The position numbers and the translations under genes are program-made. The notes under the pieces are model-generated. The model was not told where the DNA came from and ran no database searches. It worked only from the letters and a program-made list of their open reading frames with translations. A stretch of DNA of 64,000 nt from a virus, in the IMG/VR virus record IMGVR_UViG_3300026488_000010, one strand, 5' to 3'. The stretch's first letter is position 1, and every line of letters begins with the position of its first letter. Of the stretch, positions 54,244-61,586 are shown piece after piece.

Positions 54244-56745
54244 CTATGGTTTCGTGCCATAATAGGCATCATTTGTTTCTGTAAACTCTGTTACAGTATT
54301 ATCATTTATTATTTGAATATTAAAATTATCAGTTACCTGAACAGTACTATCAACATCAAATTTAATGTCCATTTTTTGATCATCTTTAATGGTTATTTCT
54401 GCAAATATACCGGAAGTGCTCATCTCGAATGATACATCATCACCCGCGGTTACTTGTTGCATCTTATCTCGAATAATCTGAATCGTTGCATCAGTATTTT
54501 GATAACTTAACTCTGCTTTGAAAAAATACTTTTGAAATAAATCAACAACTGGATTAAAAAATTCATCTTTAAATGTACTAGCCAATAGAAATCTTTTAAA
54601 GGTATCATTAACAAAATATGTAATGAAGTTATCCATCTTAACAACTTCAACTAGCATCCGTTTATAATTTTCTAAAAATAATTCTACAAATTTTGCAGGC
54701 TCAGTTATATTTTCAATTTTATCAACTATTCTTGGAAATCTATCAATAAAATGTAATTTTAACATATCATATAAACCATTATTTAATTCAACATATTCAT
54801 CATCATTTAAAGCAATAATATTAAATAATTCTTTAGGTGTAGATGGTTTATATGAATCATAAAATACTTTGATCTTTTCTTTCATGATTAGATTCTGATC
54901 CTTACCAGCAATTACTAAATAGTTATCTTCTTGTAAATTAATAGAACCTGTTGGAGCGTTCGGATAAAACTCGTCCAATTTCTCAAAAAATTCATCAAAT
55001 GTTAAAGGTATGTTACCTGCTAAGTACTCATGGAATTGTGCAATATTAAATATTTTAGTTTCTTGTAATTGATTAGCTGAACCTAATAATATATTTAAAC
55101 GTTTCTTAAATTCTAAAAACACTTTATGATCATGTTTCATATCTTTATAATATAATATCAGTTTATATATTTCATCTAATTGTGACTCTGGGAACAACAA
55201 TGAATTATAATTCATTGTTGTTGCACCTTCAAATCTCCAACCAGGTGTTTTTACTTCTAATTCTTTTAATTTTACAAACATTAACATATTCATATAGTCA
55301 GACATTGTTAGTTTAACAACTACTCCATCAATACTAAAAGTGAATATATCGTTTTGAGTTTTAGTCATTGCAAACATTCGAACCAGGTCTGGTAAATATT
55401 CCATATTATCCATTGTTTCAGATGTCCCGAATTGAATATATAAAACATTAGTAGCAATTGGGAACACGTTTTTTGGTCCCTGGTTTCTGATATCTGTATC
55501 AAAGAAATCGAATCGTCTCATTAAATATTTAGAAGTTCTTAAATCACTAGCATCAATTTCGTCCATTATTGCTAAAGGATCATTTATTAAAACTGGCTCT
55601 AACATATAACGTAATTCATATTCTGAACGCTGCGTAAGATTATAGTTTCTAATTTCTAAAGAAACAGTTGTAGTTGGTTCACCGTCTGTTTCTTTAGAAA
55701 TAAAATATTCTAAATTGTTTAAAACGATTCTTACATCATCAGTTATAGAATCTGGAAAATCCATTCTATAATTAATAGTATCTGTTTTGTTATCATGCAC
55801 TGGAGTTAGTCTAAAAGTTCTTTTAGGCACACCTGTACTAGTATTTATAAATTCTTGATCAATAAATGTTTTAAATTCTGCATTACTTAAACCATAAGAT
55901 GCTAAAGGAATTTGATCAGAATCAACATAATACATAGATTCAATGATCGCATTATTAACATCCAAGTATTCATTAATCTCAGCGTATGTTAGTTTTCTAT
56001 CAACATTTGTACTGAGAATATCATATTTCTTTTCAGATATTAAATATTCTGATTCACCTTTATTAATAGTTATTTCTTTTGAATAGTCCAGTTGTAATCT
56101 AATAGGTTGATCAGCAGGCTCGAATAATCTTACTAAAAATTCAACTCTATTTTCAGTCTCAAATATTTTAGGGAATATTTTATAACCAATATCACCATCT
56201 TTTAAATTTGATGTATCAATACCTTCTGGATATTTATTGGATGTGTCTCCATCTATATCTAAATAATATATTTTAATAGTTGTTGGGGAATTGTATTTAG
56301 ATATAAATTGTCGCTGCTCTATTCGAACATTATAAAAATTTAAGTTATGATAAAATTCACTAATTATATCATTAAAGAATGCAAATGATTTATTTGATCC
56401 TTTTGTTTCAAATAATTGAGCAAGTAAGTATGCAGTTTTTGTTTTTAACATATCTGGAAACGCTTTACTTATTCTTCTAGAAATACCAAACTGATCAAAT
56501 AAATTATTAATTAACTTTTTACTAGGTTTTTGATTTACAAAGTTGATTACCTCTTCAGGTTCTTTAATATATAAATCTTCTAAAAATGTATATAATAGAC
56601 TTTTTATGTCTTCAGTATTATTGTTATGATTGAACATTGGGCTAGAAACTATAATATCTGCATACTCTTTGAGGGCACCTTTTAAAACTTTTACGTCTGG
56701 TGCATCTAATTGATTCGATACTGATACTTTAACAGAACCTGCCAT
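54244..56745 (-). CDS. baseplate wedge protein (gp7-like)
   Basis: LAQLFETKGSNKSFAFF resembles the Y..KGT..S motif of gp7/tail I proteins; context. Confidence 0.55.
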   Translation of the reverse strand: MAGSVKVSVSNQLDAPDVKVLKGALKEYADIIVSSPMFNHNNNTEDIKSLLYTFLEDLYIKEPEEVINFVNQKPSKKLINNLFDQFGISRRISKAFPDMLKTKTAYLLAQLFETKGSNKSFAFFNDIISEFYHNLNFYNVRIEQRQFISKYNSPTTIKIYYLDIDGDTSNKYPEGIDTSNLKDGDIGYKIFPKIFETENRVEFLVRLFEPADQPIRLQLDYSKEITINKGESEYLISEKKYDILSTNVDRKLTYAEINEYLDVNNAIIESMYYVDSDQIPLASYGLSNAEFKTFIDQEFINTSTGVPKRTFRLTPVHDNKTDTINYRMDFPDSITDDVRIVLNNLEYFISKETDGEPTTTVSLEIRNYNLTQRSEYELRYMLEPVLINDPLAIMDEIDASDLRTSKYLMRRFDFFDTDIRNQGPKNVFPIATNVLYIQFGTSETMDNMEYLPDLVRMFAMTKTQNDIFTFSIDGVVVKLTMSDYMNMLMFVKLKELEVKTPGWRFEGATTMNYNSLLFPESQLDEIYKLILYYKDMKHDHKVFLEFKKRLNILLGSANQLQETKIFNIAQFHEYLAGNIPLTFDEFFEKLDEFYPNAPTGSINLQEDNYLVIAGKDQNLIMKEKIKVFYDSYKPSTPKELFNIIALNDDEYVELNNGLYDMLKLHFIDRFPRIVDKIENITEPAKFVELFLENYKRMLVEVVKMDNFITYFVNDTFKRFLLASTFKDEFFNPVVDLFQKYFFKAELSYQNTDATIQIIRDKMQQVTAGDDVSFEMSTSGIFAEITIKDDQKMDIKFDVDSTVQVTDNFNIQIINDNTVTEFTETNDAYYGTKP

Positions 56746-57799: not shown

Positions 57800-58618
57800 C
57801 TATTTTAACACAAACGTTATTGGGTCTTCATCATTTGCTTGTAAAGTAATTTTAATAATAATCTTTACAGCTATTCCAACTTCTTCTTTATAATCTATCC
57901 CAACTAAACTAAAATTATCACTATATATATTTGATAATGATACAACAAAATCTGTAATCTCTTCTAATATAATTTTCTTAGAAAAGAATGTTGCTTTTGT
58001 CTGCAAAGATTCTTTTATTGATGAGCCGAAATCATTTGAAAATGGTATAGCTCCTCGAGGTGTCCTTACAAATCTATCAAACATATCAGATAAAAATTCT
58101 GTCTGATTAGTAACTTTAGAAAAATAACCTTTATTAATATTAATATCAAAAAGATTATCTGTTGCTTCCACATGTTTTTTAATTGATCTAAAGTTTCTAT
58201 ATTTTGTACTAAACCAGTTTAATACAAAATCGTTTAATTGTTCAGTACTAAAAATTTCTAATACTAAAGCATCTTTAACATCAGTGGGTGCAAGATTCAT
58301 CGAACGAGTTATATAACTCATCATAATTTCAGAATCAGAAAAAATCTCAATAAATTTAGATTTCTTTAAATATATGCGACCTTCTACTTCTACAGTGAAT
58401 CCATAATATTCAAAAAATATTACACCGATTTCATTTTGTTCTTGGATTAATAATGAATCTAGTCTCAAAGATTCTTCAAAGTGTATATGATGAGAATAAA
58501 AATATTGCATCAATCTTTGAATATCTATCACATCTCGACGTGTCAATATTACTTCATTATATGATACTCTTTGATTTTTTACATCAATCATATCTTTTAC
58601 GGATATATCTAAAAACAT
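57800..58618 (-). CDS. gp25: baseplate wedge protein with C-terminal gp25 domain
   Basis: FVRTPRGAIPFSNDFGSSI matches the gp25/GPW motif. Confidence 0.75.
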   Translation of the reverse strand: MFLDISVKDMIDVKNQRVSYNEVILTRRDVIDIQRLMQYFYSHHIHFEESLRLDSLLIQEQNEIGVIFFEYYGFTVEVEGRIYLKKSKFIEIFSDSEIMMSYITRSMNLAPTDVKDALVLEIFSTEQLNDFVLNWFSTKYRNFRSIKKHVEATDNLFDININKGYFSKVTNQTEFLSDMFDRFVRTPRGAIPFSNDFGSSIKESLQTKATFFSKKIILEEITDFVVSLSNIYSDNFSLVGIDYKEEVGIAVKIIIKITLQANDEDPITFVLK

Positions 58619-58687: not shown

Positions 58688-58897
58688 TTACATCATATCT
58701 TTCATGCGCGAATTTTTCTGCTGAGCTATCTTCTTTTGAGAATCTAGCATTGCTTCGCGCATATATATTGGTAATGAAAAATATTCAGAAAAGGATAATG
58801 TTAGTCCATCATAAGCCACCGCTGACTGAAATCGAACTAACTCATACTCATAAATTGAGTGATGATCCTCATCAGTTGTAAACAGATAACGCTTTAC
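58688..58897 (-). CDS. startless ORF, predicted frameshift extension (gp51/GT-type tail or hub assembly chaperone)
   Basis: Frame open 58918-58688 with no early ATG; encodes VKRYLFTTDEDHHSIYEYELVRFQSAVAYDGLTLSFSEYFSLPIYMREAMLDSQKKIAQQKNSRMKDMM. Confidence 0.7.
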   Translation of the reverse strand, partial: VKRYLFTTDEDHHSIYEYELVRFQSAVAYDGLTLSFSEYFSLPIYMREAMLDSQKKIAQQKNSRMKDMM

Positions 58898-59762
58898 GAA
58901 AGAAGTCTTGTTCAGGGTTCACATTTTCCCATTTGAATACAGGTGATTCACAGTGAATATTATCACATTGGATATTTAAATAAAAATTAGGAGAATAATC
59001 AACCAATGGTTTAACTGTTGTATCTTCTAATAATTTTGATTGTAATTCAAGAGGCATCCCTTTTATAGTTGGAATAATATCTTTAATTTTATTCTCAAGG
59101 ACCAAAAGTTCATTACCTGTTTGAATCTCTAAACGTTTGATATAAACACAAAACATTTCAAGAGTGTTTAAAATATCATTGTTGTTTTCAACTGAATCAC
59201 GCATTTCAGAAGTTTCTTTTTCTAATAGAATTTGCATTCTATCTGCTTCAGTTGGCATCTTATATACCACTTTAAATCCATCAATAATAACGGATTCAAT
59301 TTCATACTTATCAAAATCAGCAGATTCATCCCAACCCTTTCCAATAGTATCTTCATGTACTAATTCAGACGGTGGTAATTCATATGTATTTTTTGTTCCA
59401 CAGCTTGGACATGTAATTACTTTTTCTGGTAATTTAGTAAACGTTGAATCAAGTAATGCGTACACAAGTAAAGCTTTATCAGGTGGTGTTAAATGATTAA
59501 TAAAATCATCAGCTGATGAAAATTGTAAAGAATCAAATGATGTATGGTTATATAATAGTTCATTGAATGCTTTGATGAACTTTGAACCTGATGTTCGCAT
59601 AGTTTTTTGAACTAAATCTTCTGCACCTGTTACTGGTGTAACTGTTGCTTTTGTCTGAAGAATTGGTAAATCAACTTCAACCTCTCGTGTGCCTGCTAAT
59701 AAAGCCAATGCTGCAATTGCATTTGAGCTACCGGTTTTCGGTGCTACAATATCGTCTAACAT
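58872..59762 (-). CDS. baseplate hub/tail assembly chaperone (gp26-like)
   Basis: VTPVTGAED, LTPPDKALLVYAL, CPSCG and C...C Zn motifs, C-terminal DFF. Confidence 0.7.
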   Translation of the reverse strand: MLDDIVAPKTGSSNAIAALALLAGTREVEVDLPILQTKATVTPVTGAEDLVQKTMRTSGSKFIKAFNELLYNHTSFDSLQFSSADDFINHLTPPDKALLVYALLDSTFTKLPEKVITCPSCGTKNTYELPPSELVHEDTIGKGWDESADFDKYEIESVIIDGFKVVYKMPTEADRMQILLEKETSEMRDSVENNNDILNTLEMFCVYIKRLEIQTGNELLVLENKIKDIIPTIKGMPLELQSKLLEDTTVKPLVDYSPNFYLNIQCDNIHCESPVFKWENVNPEQDFFRKALSVYN

Positions 59763-59835: not shown

Positions 59836-59995
59836 TTATTATTTCTATAGTAACTCATAACGATCTTTAAAGATAGAAAATAAACGATCTTTAAAGATCG
59901 TTTTATAATTCGCCTTATAGTGTTGCATAATAGTCACTGTAAGAGATTCAAAATATTTTTCTATCTTTAAAGATCGTTTTTGAAACGATCTTTAA
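59836..59995. repeat. cluster of ATCTTTAAAGAT palindromes with conserved 25-nt core and ATAGAAATAATAA motif
   Basis: Cores at 59863, 59887, 59963 and partial 59988; - strand motif at 59836-59848; 59914-59938 is 22/25 identical to 29222-29246. Confidence 0.9.
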
Positions 59996-59996
59996 T

Positions 59997-61526
59997 CTAC
60001 ATTGTTTTAAAATATTTATAATTACCAGAATCATAAATAACTCGATAACCGTTAATTAACATATTTTGTGTAGCAGTTTTAGATTGATCAAATATCAAAC
60101 CTAATTTTTCTATTTTATGTTTTTGATATTTGAGTCTTGATTCAACGCGATCTTTAATATAAAACATATTTGGAGGCGAGATATTAATAAATTCAAAACC
60201 TATAGTATTATATAAATTTCCTTTGCTCCATCTACGATTTGCATACGAAACCATTAAATTGTATGAATAATTATTATCATAATATTTTAACATTTTGCTT
60301 GCTCCACCTACTACAACAGTATTAAGTTTTGAACACATTCTATATAGTTCAACATCTGCATCTTTATCCATTCTCGGTTTTCCAAATGTCATTATGCTTA
60401 CTAATTCATCATTATAATATAAACCTATTTTTGTCGCAGCATTTATATATCCTTGTAAATGATTCATTTTTAAAAAATCTCTTGCTTCAGAAATAGAGAC
60501 CACTTTAGTTTGACATTTTCTAGCATGTATTTTCTTTGATAATCCAAAAGCGTTTTTTAGAATACTTTTCCATAATATCTTATTTTCTATCCATTCATTT
60601 TCAAATATATGAAATAATTGATAACCATGTTTCAAACACTCTTCCGTTTTAATTAAATGTCGCTTACTTTGATAATATTTATCACCTTGGTTCTGATTGA
60701 CGTTATTTGTTCCAAATGAATGCCAATACAAACCATTAAATTCAATTGCGATTTTATGTTCTGGAATTAATATATCAATTTCTAAAGGTTTAATTAAAGT
60801 TCTATCACTTTGGATAATATCGATTCCAAGTGATAGAATGTATTCTGCAATCTCTTGTTCATATGATGAAACCAACCTCTTTTTATATGATATCCCAAAA
60901 TATGCCATTCGTTTATTAATATTTGAACGTGATATATTAAAAAAACTGATCAACCCATTTATGTCTAAAATATCATTTTTTAAAAAATGTTTAATTATGT
61001 ACTCTTTATTATATTTATCTATATTTTTAAAATGTTTATATGTTGATGAACAGGCTCCATATTTTGACATATTTGTCGCTCTAACCTTTTTTCTAATTTC
61101 GTTATTCTTCATTGGATTGTCAACACCATATTTTATTATATTTGTTTCTTTTGTTTTTTTAACTTTTTGTTTAATTTTATTATCATCCCAAGTATTTGAG
61201 ATCTGACGTCTAATTTTAGAATCTTTGTTTCGACATCTGACAGAACAGAACATTCTAAAGATATTTTTATCATTATCAAACTTAACATTGTTTTGACATT
61301 CAACATTGTTACATTTATGTATAACTTTGCTTTCATATTTTTGAAGAATATATAAATAGATCCTTGCTTTATCTGAATATTCTGCCGGTGTTGATATATG
61401 AATATCATTTAATAGTTTATCAGATATGTTTTTAATATTGATTTTTCGTATTTTTAAAACGGTGTCTCTTGTGTCTATACTTGATGTATAACTTCTAATT
61501 AATTGTATAATTTGTGTAATTTGCAT
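59997..61526 (-). CDS. Hef-like homing endonuclease (Vsr/DUF559-type nuclease domain)
   Basis: SSYEQEI...PLEIDILIP..KIAIEFNGLYWHS, FCSVRC, KYGVDNPM repeat, C-terminal FL..NHLQG...GGASK domain; AAGGA RBS before ATG 61526. Confidence 0.8.
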   Translation of the reverse strand: MQITQIIQLIRSYTSSIDTRDTVLKIRKINIKNISDKLLNDIHISTPAEYSDKARIYLYILQKYESKVIHKCNNVECQNNVKFDNDKNIFRMFCSVRCRNKDSKIRRQISNTWDDNKIKQKVKKTKETNIIKYGVDNPMKNNEIRKKVRATNMSKYGACSSTYKHFKNIDKYNKEYIIKHFLKNDILDINGLISFFNISRSNINKRMAYFGISYKKRLVSSYEQEIAEYILSLGIDIIQSDRTLIKPLEIDILIPEHKIAIEFNGLYWHSFGTNNVNQNQGDKYYQSKRHLIKTEECLKHGYQLFHIFENEWIENKILWKSILKNAFGLSKKIHARKCQTKVVSISEARDFLKMNHLQGYINAATKIGLYYNDELVSIMTFGKPRMDKDADVELYRMCSKLNTVVVGGASKMLKYYDNNYSYNLMVSYANRRWSKGNLYNTIGFEFINISPPNMFYIKDRVESRLKYQKHKIEKLGLIFDQSKTATQNMLINGYRVIYDSGNYKYFKTM

Positions 61527-61586
61527 ACTGGTCCTTTTGCGATTATTTTTGACCATAAACTATTCCGATACAGTTTAAAAAAGCCG

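Follow-up and report, generated by a model that had tools for sequence, protein, structure and literature searches.

A conserved +1 frame change at UUU_C, very probably a programmed ribosomal frameshift, in a gp26-like baseplate gene of uncultured giant phages

The viral record IMGVR_UViG_3300026488_000010 of the IMG/VR database, analysed here over 64,000 nucleotides of one strand (the window), carries on its minus strand a gene for a protein that resembles the T4 baseplate protein gp26. Comparison of this gene with its relatives at 14 further loci indicates that it is very probably decoded in two ways, with standard translation giving a protein of 296 amino acids and a +1 slip of the ribosome at UUU_C, close to the 3' end of the gene, giving a second product of 357 amino acids that ends in a different reading frame. 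The elements of this arrangement, which involve the frame of the gp26-like gene (frame 0) and an open reading frame (ORF) in the +1 frame, are the following.

58872–59762, minus strand: gp26-like gene in frame 0, encoding a baseplate hub or assembly-chaperone protein of 296 amino acids, as judged from the ORF list, homologues and fold.
58893–58904, minus strand: putative +1 shift site UUC UUU CGU AAA, the invariant 12-mer TTYTTTCKTAAA.
58875–58897, minus strand: dual-coding overlap, read as (R)KALSVYN in frame 0 and as VKRYLFTT in the +1 frame, with low diversity and a characteristic third-position pattern.
58688–58897, minus strand: +1-frame extension of 69 codons plus TAA, with a coding signature in its synonymous and nonsynonymous differences and no stops in 14 loci.

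The gp26-like gene ends in the codons GAC TTC TTT CGT AAA GCG TTA TCT GTT TAC AAC TGA, in which TTC (58904–58902), TTT (58901–58899) and CGT (58898–58896) encode F287, F288 and R289 and the frame-0 stop is the TGA at 58874–58872 in minus-strand reading. The +1 frame has a TGA at 58921–58919, is then open from 58918 to the TAA at 58690–58688, and after a shift at UUU-C supplies the end of the 357-residue fusion product. An earlier reading of the window from its letters alone (the sequence-only reading) had proposed a hidden ORF reached by a +1 shift at UUC-UUU-CGU, and the comparison across 15 loci supports this proposal. Its details also proved accurate when the minus strand was read directly, namely a +1 frame from 58918 to 58688 that overlaps the 3' end of the gp26-like gene, the codons UUC UUU CGU at 58904–58896, and the lack of an ATG before the last 24 codons of the +1 ORF; the predicted product sizes of 296 and 357 amino acids are those obtained by computing the ORF and the fusion. 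At the G+C content of the window (29%), off-frame stop codons come at about 0.08 per codon and the chance of 61 open codons in an off-frame is P ~0.006 for this single genome, and the same +1 frame is open in 14/14 other independent loci despite saturated synonymous sites. No promoter or terminator was found between the gp26-like ORF and the +1 ORF.

A search of 5.8 billion proteins returned 38 homologues of the gp26-like protein with lengths of 242–316 amino acids, and no fused form of about 357 amino acids was present among them. Their C-terminus is almost invariant, and all 38 end within one residue of the same YN. The DNA of 14 further independent loci (35–88% protein identity) was recovered from metagenomic and viral contigs, which together with the window makes 15 loci; several of the relative contigs are 130–295 kilobases long, and the phages are accordingly giant ones. 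DNA and protein searches of 50,697 isolated phage genomes with the gene, the extension, a distant ORF call (P0054) and the homologue from the most distant locus (L017) gave no match, and no relatives were found when GTDB genome contigs were scanned.

The two-frame layout is the same throughout. All 15 loci contain the motif GAY/GAG TTY TTT CKT AAA, the frame-0 stop follows 10–12 codons after the Asp codon (GAY) that precedes the TTY TTT pair, and past this stop the +1 frame stays open for 53–64 more codons. The translated +1 peptides form a gapless alignment across 61 columns. Over the 53 columns past the frame-0 stop in 14 loci, the proportions of synonymous (pS) and nonsynonymous (pN) differences in the +1 ORF are 0.69 and 0.31 with 0 stops, as against 0.34 and 0.39 with 63 stops in the second frame and 0.24 and 0.42 with 89 stops in the third, so that pN exceeds pS in both control frames. 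Extension codons 9–26, which lie upstream of every possible internal start, show the same coding signature. By this pattern of substitution, the +1 ORF is demonstrably protein-coding in every relative for which DNA is at hand, and its offset from the upstream gene is +1 in every case. When 1.84 billion representative proteins were searched exhaustively with a profile of the extension, neither an in-frame fusion nor a conventional stand-alone gene came up, the matches being 14 short ORF calls (42–85 amino acids) and three spurious repeat proteins. The conservation of motif and frame offset in relatives, which the sequence-only reading had listed as a check, holds in 15/15 loci for the UUU_C core and the offset. 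As for the findings it had named as contrary to its proposal, a normal start or an in-frame fusion in relatives was looked for and is absent, no conserved independent start exists in the 15 loci, and a sequencing indel is ruled out, the arrangement being common to 15 independent assemblies.

The point at which the frame changes can be placed within these alignments. The 12-mer is invariant in 15/15 loci, including L017, and occurs once in the window; its TTT is followed by C in every case. Before TTT, the frame-0 codons vary synonymously (CCT/CCA/CCC, GAC/GAT and TTC/TTT), and the +1 frame is interrupted by stops (codon -5 in five loci, codon -1 in L014) and shows non-conservative changes (S/F and T/I/S). 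After TTT, the third positions of frame 0 are frozen, with those of CGT, TCT and TAC invariant and GCG replaced by GCC in L017 only, and the frame-0 codons TAC and AAC are never TAT or AAT despite 71% A+T. Here it is the +1 codons that vary synonymously (CGT/CGC/CGG, CTG/CTA/CTT and ACA/ACT/ACC/ACG), beginning two codons past TTT, and the only frequent frame-0 replacement, R<->L (CGT<->CTT), reads in the +1 frame as V<->L, a conservative exchange. As dual coding would lead one to expect, the overlap has a 3–8 times lower nucleotide diversity than the sequence downstream. The invariant 12-mer together with the switch of synonymous variation places the frame switch at UUU followed by C, and the change of coding constraint in the alignments maps to TTT|C. 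Outside the site, among 37,155 codons in all long ORFs of the window and L001-L017, Phe-Arg(CGT) is written TTC-CGT 6 times and TTT-CGT 2 times at an overall TTT:TTC ratio of 4:1 (Fisher p 0.0013 for the TTT-CGT deficit), which would fit a general avoidance of UUU_CGU, as a slippery pair, by this phage clade. No tRNA genes were found in the window.

Several observations weigh against a programmed slip at this site. The sequence-only reading had likened the site to a UUU-CGN motif, of which the UUU_C core is present in 15/15 loci and the CGN part is not universal: the A-site codon is CGU in 12/15 loci and CUU in 3/15, and is not conserved as a rare codon (CGU, at 6.1 per 1000 codons, is moderately rare compared with AGA at 18.7 per 1000). 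UUU_C occurs in frame 64 times in the window. No consensus RNA structure emerged from RNAalifold on positions -30 to +100 around the site, no upstream Shine-Dalgarno-like stimulator was found near it, and there is no recognisable tape-measure gene nearby. Possible starts for the +1 ORF also exist in a minority of relatives, as an ATG (L009 and L012) or TTG (L017) lies three codons upstream of the +1-frame GTA and six ORF calls of 74–85 amino acids from more distant relatives begin just before the conserved FFVK stretch.

A real shift could lie elsewhere in the 11-codon overlap or take another route: tRNA-Lys might slip at AAA_G (58895–58892), the ribosome might move by -2 on the T-run, or the frame might change at the frame-0 stop. 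We give these possibilities together a small chance of being right. AAA_G is present in 13/15 loci and a slip there would give a product of the same length (...FFRK-RY...), but AAA is followed by T in L011 and L013, and the invariant third base of CGT/CTT, where R<->L in frame 0 equals V<->L in the +1 frame, fits +1 decoding before this codon; the AAA_G alternative is the weaker one. The TTTTTT of nine loci would permit -2 re-pairing, whereas six loci including the window have TTCTTT, on which a -2 slip would land on UCU. The frame-0 stop lies within one codon of the same place in all relatives, yet the last sense codon before it varies (AAC in 11 loci, else AAG, CAG, AGA, TAC or TTA), and so does the stop codon itself.

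Only a slight chance remains for the +1 ORF being a separate overlapping gene with an independent or coupled start at CUG, AUC, AUU or, in some relatives, an AUG in the overlap. The ATG, TTG and gene-called ORFs described above would favour such a gene, as would the example of T4 gene 26, which itself has an internal AUU start for 26'. However, no start codon of any kind is conserved; the sole near-cognate codon in the window is CTG, and its +1 ORF has no canonical start before a GTG at 58819, which is codon 27 of the extension and lacks a Shine-Dalgarno motif. L007, L010 and L013 are without an ATG, GTG or TTG between the point where the +1 frame opens and the end of extension codon 35, and the +1 frame of L014 opens just three codons (ATT TCT TTC) before GTA. 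A Shine-Dalgarno motif precedes none of the candidate +1 starts in any locus, whereas the neighbouring real genes have strong ones, the next gene starting at 58618 behind AAGGAGG. The ATG of L009 (3844–3846) and L012 (3811–3813) stems from a Q->N replacement in frame 0 (PENDFF for PEQDFF), and the +1 codons upstream of TTC are unconserved. For coupled genes, moreover, an overlap of about 30 nucleotides that is fixed in one frame and contains an invariant slippery motif would be unexpected. By these sequence comparisons the +1 ORF lacks a usable conserved start codon, and independent initiation is unlikely, though less so for the minority of relatives with an ATG or TTG near the site. Separately from the situation in the window, the PENDFF-type ATG of L009 and L012 could let the extension become an independent gene in some lineages.

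That the frame change is an artefact or a sign of decay, caused by an indel from sequencing or assembly, by the recent breakage of a gene or by polymerase slippage on the T-run, is next to impossible: a shift of one base beside a T-run is what errors typically look like and nine loci have six consecutive T, but the identical frame change recurs in 15 independent assemblies from different samples at 35–88% protein identity, no intact in-frame version turned up anywhere in our searches, both frames are under selection in the overlap, and polymerase slippage would need a much longer run than the TTCTTTC of the window and five other loci.

The protein that would be extended by the +1 slip at UUU_C was compared with known proteins by sequence and by predicted fold. 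The window protein scores 19.6 bits with the Pfam family PF12322 (T4_baseplate, gp26), below the cut-off of 24.5; the family is matched by 11 of 27 members of the protein's own family (best E-value 9.7e-5), none shown above the cut-off, and BLASTP of the gp26-like protein against T4 gp26 gave nothing significant. An AlphaFold2 model of the 296-residue body, built on 27 homologues, has a predicted local distance difference test score of 84.8 and a predicted template modelling (TM) score of 0.82. Foldseek searches with this model against BFVD, a comparison with predicted models on both sides, gave 60 matches at E<=1e-3, which bear names such as 'Baseplate hub assembly protein, T4-like' and 'Baseplate hub subunit' and include 'Gp26 base plate hub subunit [Aeromonas phage 25]' at E 1.7e-5. 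At the level of predicted models, the gp26-like body shares its fold with annotated gp26 and baseplate hub proteins. Foldseek and profile searches against the PDB found nothing. A PDB-wide VIA-align comparison with 48,161 chains placed the HK97 tail assembly chaperone 2ob9 first (Z 6.0, root-mean-square deviation 5.1, 94/104 residues) and YqbN 3klu second (Z 5.5, 97/119 residues), both aligned to model residues 4–112, with the reservation that a Z below 8 may reflect merely a common arrangement. The tail assembly chaperones of HK97 and YqbN appear to be the nearest structures to the modelled N-terminal domain, as a lead rather than as proof. At the other end of the model, the frame-0 tail forms the final helix (residues 283–295), which means that the shift falls inside a helix.

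Further features of the body emerged from the same alignments and models. Four cysteines, C118, C121, C266 and C271 (CPxC ... CxxxxC), are invariant in the 27 homologues, which suggests that a zinc site ties the middle of the body to its C-terminal part; a CPxC is present in T4 gp26 close to the C-terminus. The closest fold relatives in BFVD are unnamed proteins of 389–475 amino acids with TM-scores of 0.70–0.73, and many homologues in cultured jumbo phages have 507–553 amino acids (Erwinia Special G, Ralstonia RSF1 and RP12, Klebsiella Eowyn and Aeromonas PS1). In these longer proteins, the counterpart of the frameshift extension may be present as an in-frame C-terminal domain.

In the mechanism that we propose, most ribosomes would stay in frame 0 and stop at 58874–58872 to release the 296-residue protein, while a fraction would slip +1 with peptidyl-tRNA-Phe on UUU (F288) before C. 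The tRNA-Phe would re-pair from UUU (58901–58899) to UUC (58900–58898), and reading would go on through GUA AAG CGU to the TAA at 58690–58688. The resulting long product of 357 amino acids would agree with the short one up to residue 288 and end in a new tail of 69 residues. The tRNA-Phe in question (anticodon GAA) pairs better with UUC than with UUU. Frameshift efficiency may be low, by analogy with lambda gpGT. Both products would share the N-terminal domain that resembles tail assembly chaperones, and the rare long form, following the analogy with lambda gpG/gpGT, would tether an extra binding module to the hub or a tail assembly intermediate; present in few molecules, this module would recruit or position another baseplate or tail component. 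We infer this role of the extension from the chaperone-like N-terminal domain, the reported hub-assembly role of T4 gp26 and the two-product logic of G/GT and 26/26', and likewise infer the ribosomal nature of the event, the exact slip codon and its efficiency. According to a review (PMC5009743), UUU_Ynn sites are prone to +1 shifts in bacteria and influenza PA-X has UCC_UUU_CGU as its minimal cassette. A review of the T4 tail lists gp26 and gp51 as hub assembly chaperones (PMC3004832).

One of the nearest counterparts is the chaperone frameshift of lambda gpG/gpGT, which has equivalents in most long-tailed phages (Xu, Hendrix and Duda 2004; Levin et al. 1993; summarised in PMC5009743). Both systems concern a tail-assembly gene with a short major product and a minor one, known in lambda and predicted here, whose C-terminus is lengthened by a programmed shift close to the 3' end, and the arrangement is conserved regardless of sequence similarity. 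The differences are that the proposed shift here is +1 at UUU_C instead of -1 on an X XXY YYZ heptamer, that the body is larger (296 amino acids) and has a four-cysteine site, that no recognisable tape-measure gene follows directly, and that the extension has no detectable similarity to T domains. One trait of the G/GT class, a conserved 3' frame change with a (here predicted) C-terminally extended second product, is present by comparison in 15 loci; full membership of that class is not claimed because the gene does not stand beside a recognisable tape-measure gene.

At the level of the site itself, a P-site UUU before a pyrimidine is shared with the UUU_Y +1 sites of Escherichia coli argI, the Yersinia YopN-TyeA fusion and influenza A PA-X (PMC5009743). 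The likeness to PA-X extends to the identical UUU_CGU hexamer in 12/15 loci and to the fact that no RNA structure is required, whereas the E-site codon is UUY here and UCC there, the A-site codon is CUU in three of our loci, and the present case concerns a bacterial ribosome, a DNA phage and a predicted structural-assembly fusion product. Two further +1 shifts in structural or assembly genes of tailed viruses are those in the capsid and tail genes of Listeria phage PSA and the probable one in the chaperone gene of the myovirus HSTV-2 (PMC5009743). These belong to other gene families and hosts. The shift in PSA reportedly takes place at a proline codon beside a stop codon.

T4 itself produces two nested polypeptides from gene 26, whose internal AUU start for 26' was reportedly described by Nivinskas et al. 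in 1992. The gene lies at 115802–116428 of NC_000866, with gene 25 next on the same strand. By the predicted models, T4 gp26 and the gp26-like protein belong to the same fold family; the gene that follows here is probably gp25-like, as in the T4 order, and two nested products would come from one gene here as they do in T4, although the T4 products share their C-terminus (internal in-frame start) and those proposed here share their N-terminus (frame change). T4 has no +1 ORF after gene 26, as gene 25 overlaps the gene 26 stop, and the similarity between T4 gp26 and the protein described here is below the Pfam threshold.

On its 3' side the recoded unit is bounded by the following gene, which comes after the extension in 13 loci as well.

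57800–58618, minus strand: next gene, encoding 272 amino acids behind a strong Shine-Dalgarno motif, probably a gp25-like sheath initiator or wedge protein, on weak Atlas leads.

These leads connect residues 149–272 of its product with GPW_gp25 and Sheath_initiator (score 0.89, TM-score 0.36/0.59). Beyond it lie an unassigned 345-residue ORF and an 833-residue ORF (54244–56745, minus strand) with a weak Baseplate_wedge lead. The sequence-only reading had seen a gp26/gp51 pair in this region and had found the extension similar to gp51 or GT-type chaperone tails. Neither view is borne out: the downstream gene looks like gp25 and not gp51, matching the T4 order 26->25, and searches of the extension against Pfam, PHROGs, and PDB sequences and profiles gave nothing credible. 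As leads only, the 272-residue protein would be gp25-like rather than gp51, and the local gene order would resemble the 26->25->wedge order of T4 rather than 26/51. The extension has a weak BLAST similarity to the N-terminus of T4 gp26 (E 1.9). Its match to phrog_7580 (E 1e-3) was found with only 1/11 relatives and was treated as chance, and its interpretation as an internal repeat of body residues 150–190, suggested by a MAFFT alignment, was rejected at an hhalign probability of 0.5%.

Upstream, between the capsid-like and gp26-like genes, lies a 519-residue ORF (59997–61556, minus strand) with weak DUF7487 and restriction-endonuclease-like matches, and a 37%-identical copy of it (E 3e-76) is located at L017:2771–4171, on the other side of the unit of gp26 and extension. 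Its sequence relationships suggest that this ORF is a mobile, homing-endonuclease-like gene that targets the region. In L017 the homing-endonuclease-like gene comes after the extension stop instead of separating the two ORFs, so that these stay together, which supports their being a unit. The leader of the gp26-like gene (59859–59980) contains three copies of a palindromic element, AACGATCTTTAAAGAT(CGTT), which are perfect inverted repeats of 16–22 nucleotides, one of them terminator-like by score (59903–59882). Located between the putatively mobile ORF and the baseplate genes, this element may serve as a regulatory or terminator cassette.

Literature searches for frameshifting or recoding in gp26 or a baseplate hub gene found no report. 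The comparative evidence supports programmed +1 frameshifting at a conserved site in a gp26-type assembly gene of uncultured giant phages. It also means that a 69-residue coding region has been systematically missed by gene callers in a whole clade of these phages, and it would add a natural, structure-free bacterial UUU_C +1 site with an unusually clean comparative signal.

To our knowledge, T4-type phages are an exception to tail-chaperone frameshifting. Programmed frameshifts in tail chaperone genes are among the most conserved features of long-tailed phages. The role of T4 gp26 is still uncertain; the review of the T4 tail lists it only as a hub assembly chaperone (PMC3004832). A +1 site in a gp26 homologue with a chaperone-like N-terminal domain would provide a concrete link between T4-type and G/GT systems. 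It is conceivable, although we hold the idea only tentatively and think it rather doubtful, that in T4-like and related giant myoviruses the place of the long-missing tail assembly chaperones is taken by gp26-type 'hub' proteins, and that the clade described here keeps the ancestral two-product logic of G/GT through a +1 slip at UUU_C and T4 arrives at a similar pair of products through an internal AUU (26'). If true, nested products would be the conserved requirement in these phages and the recoding mechanism would be interchangeable.

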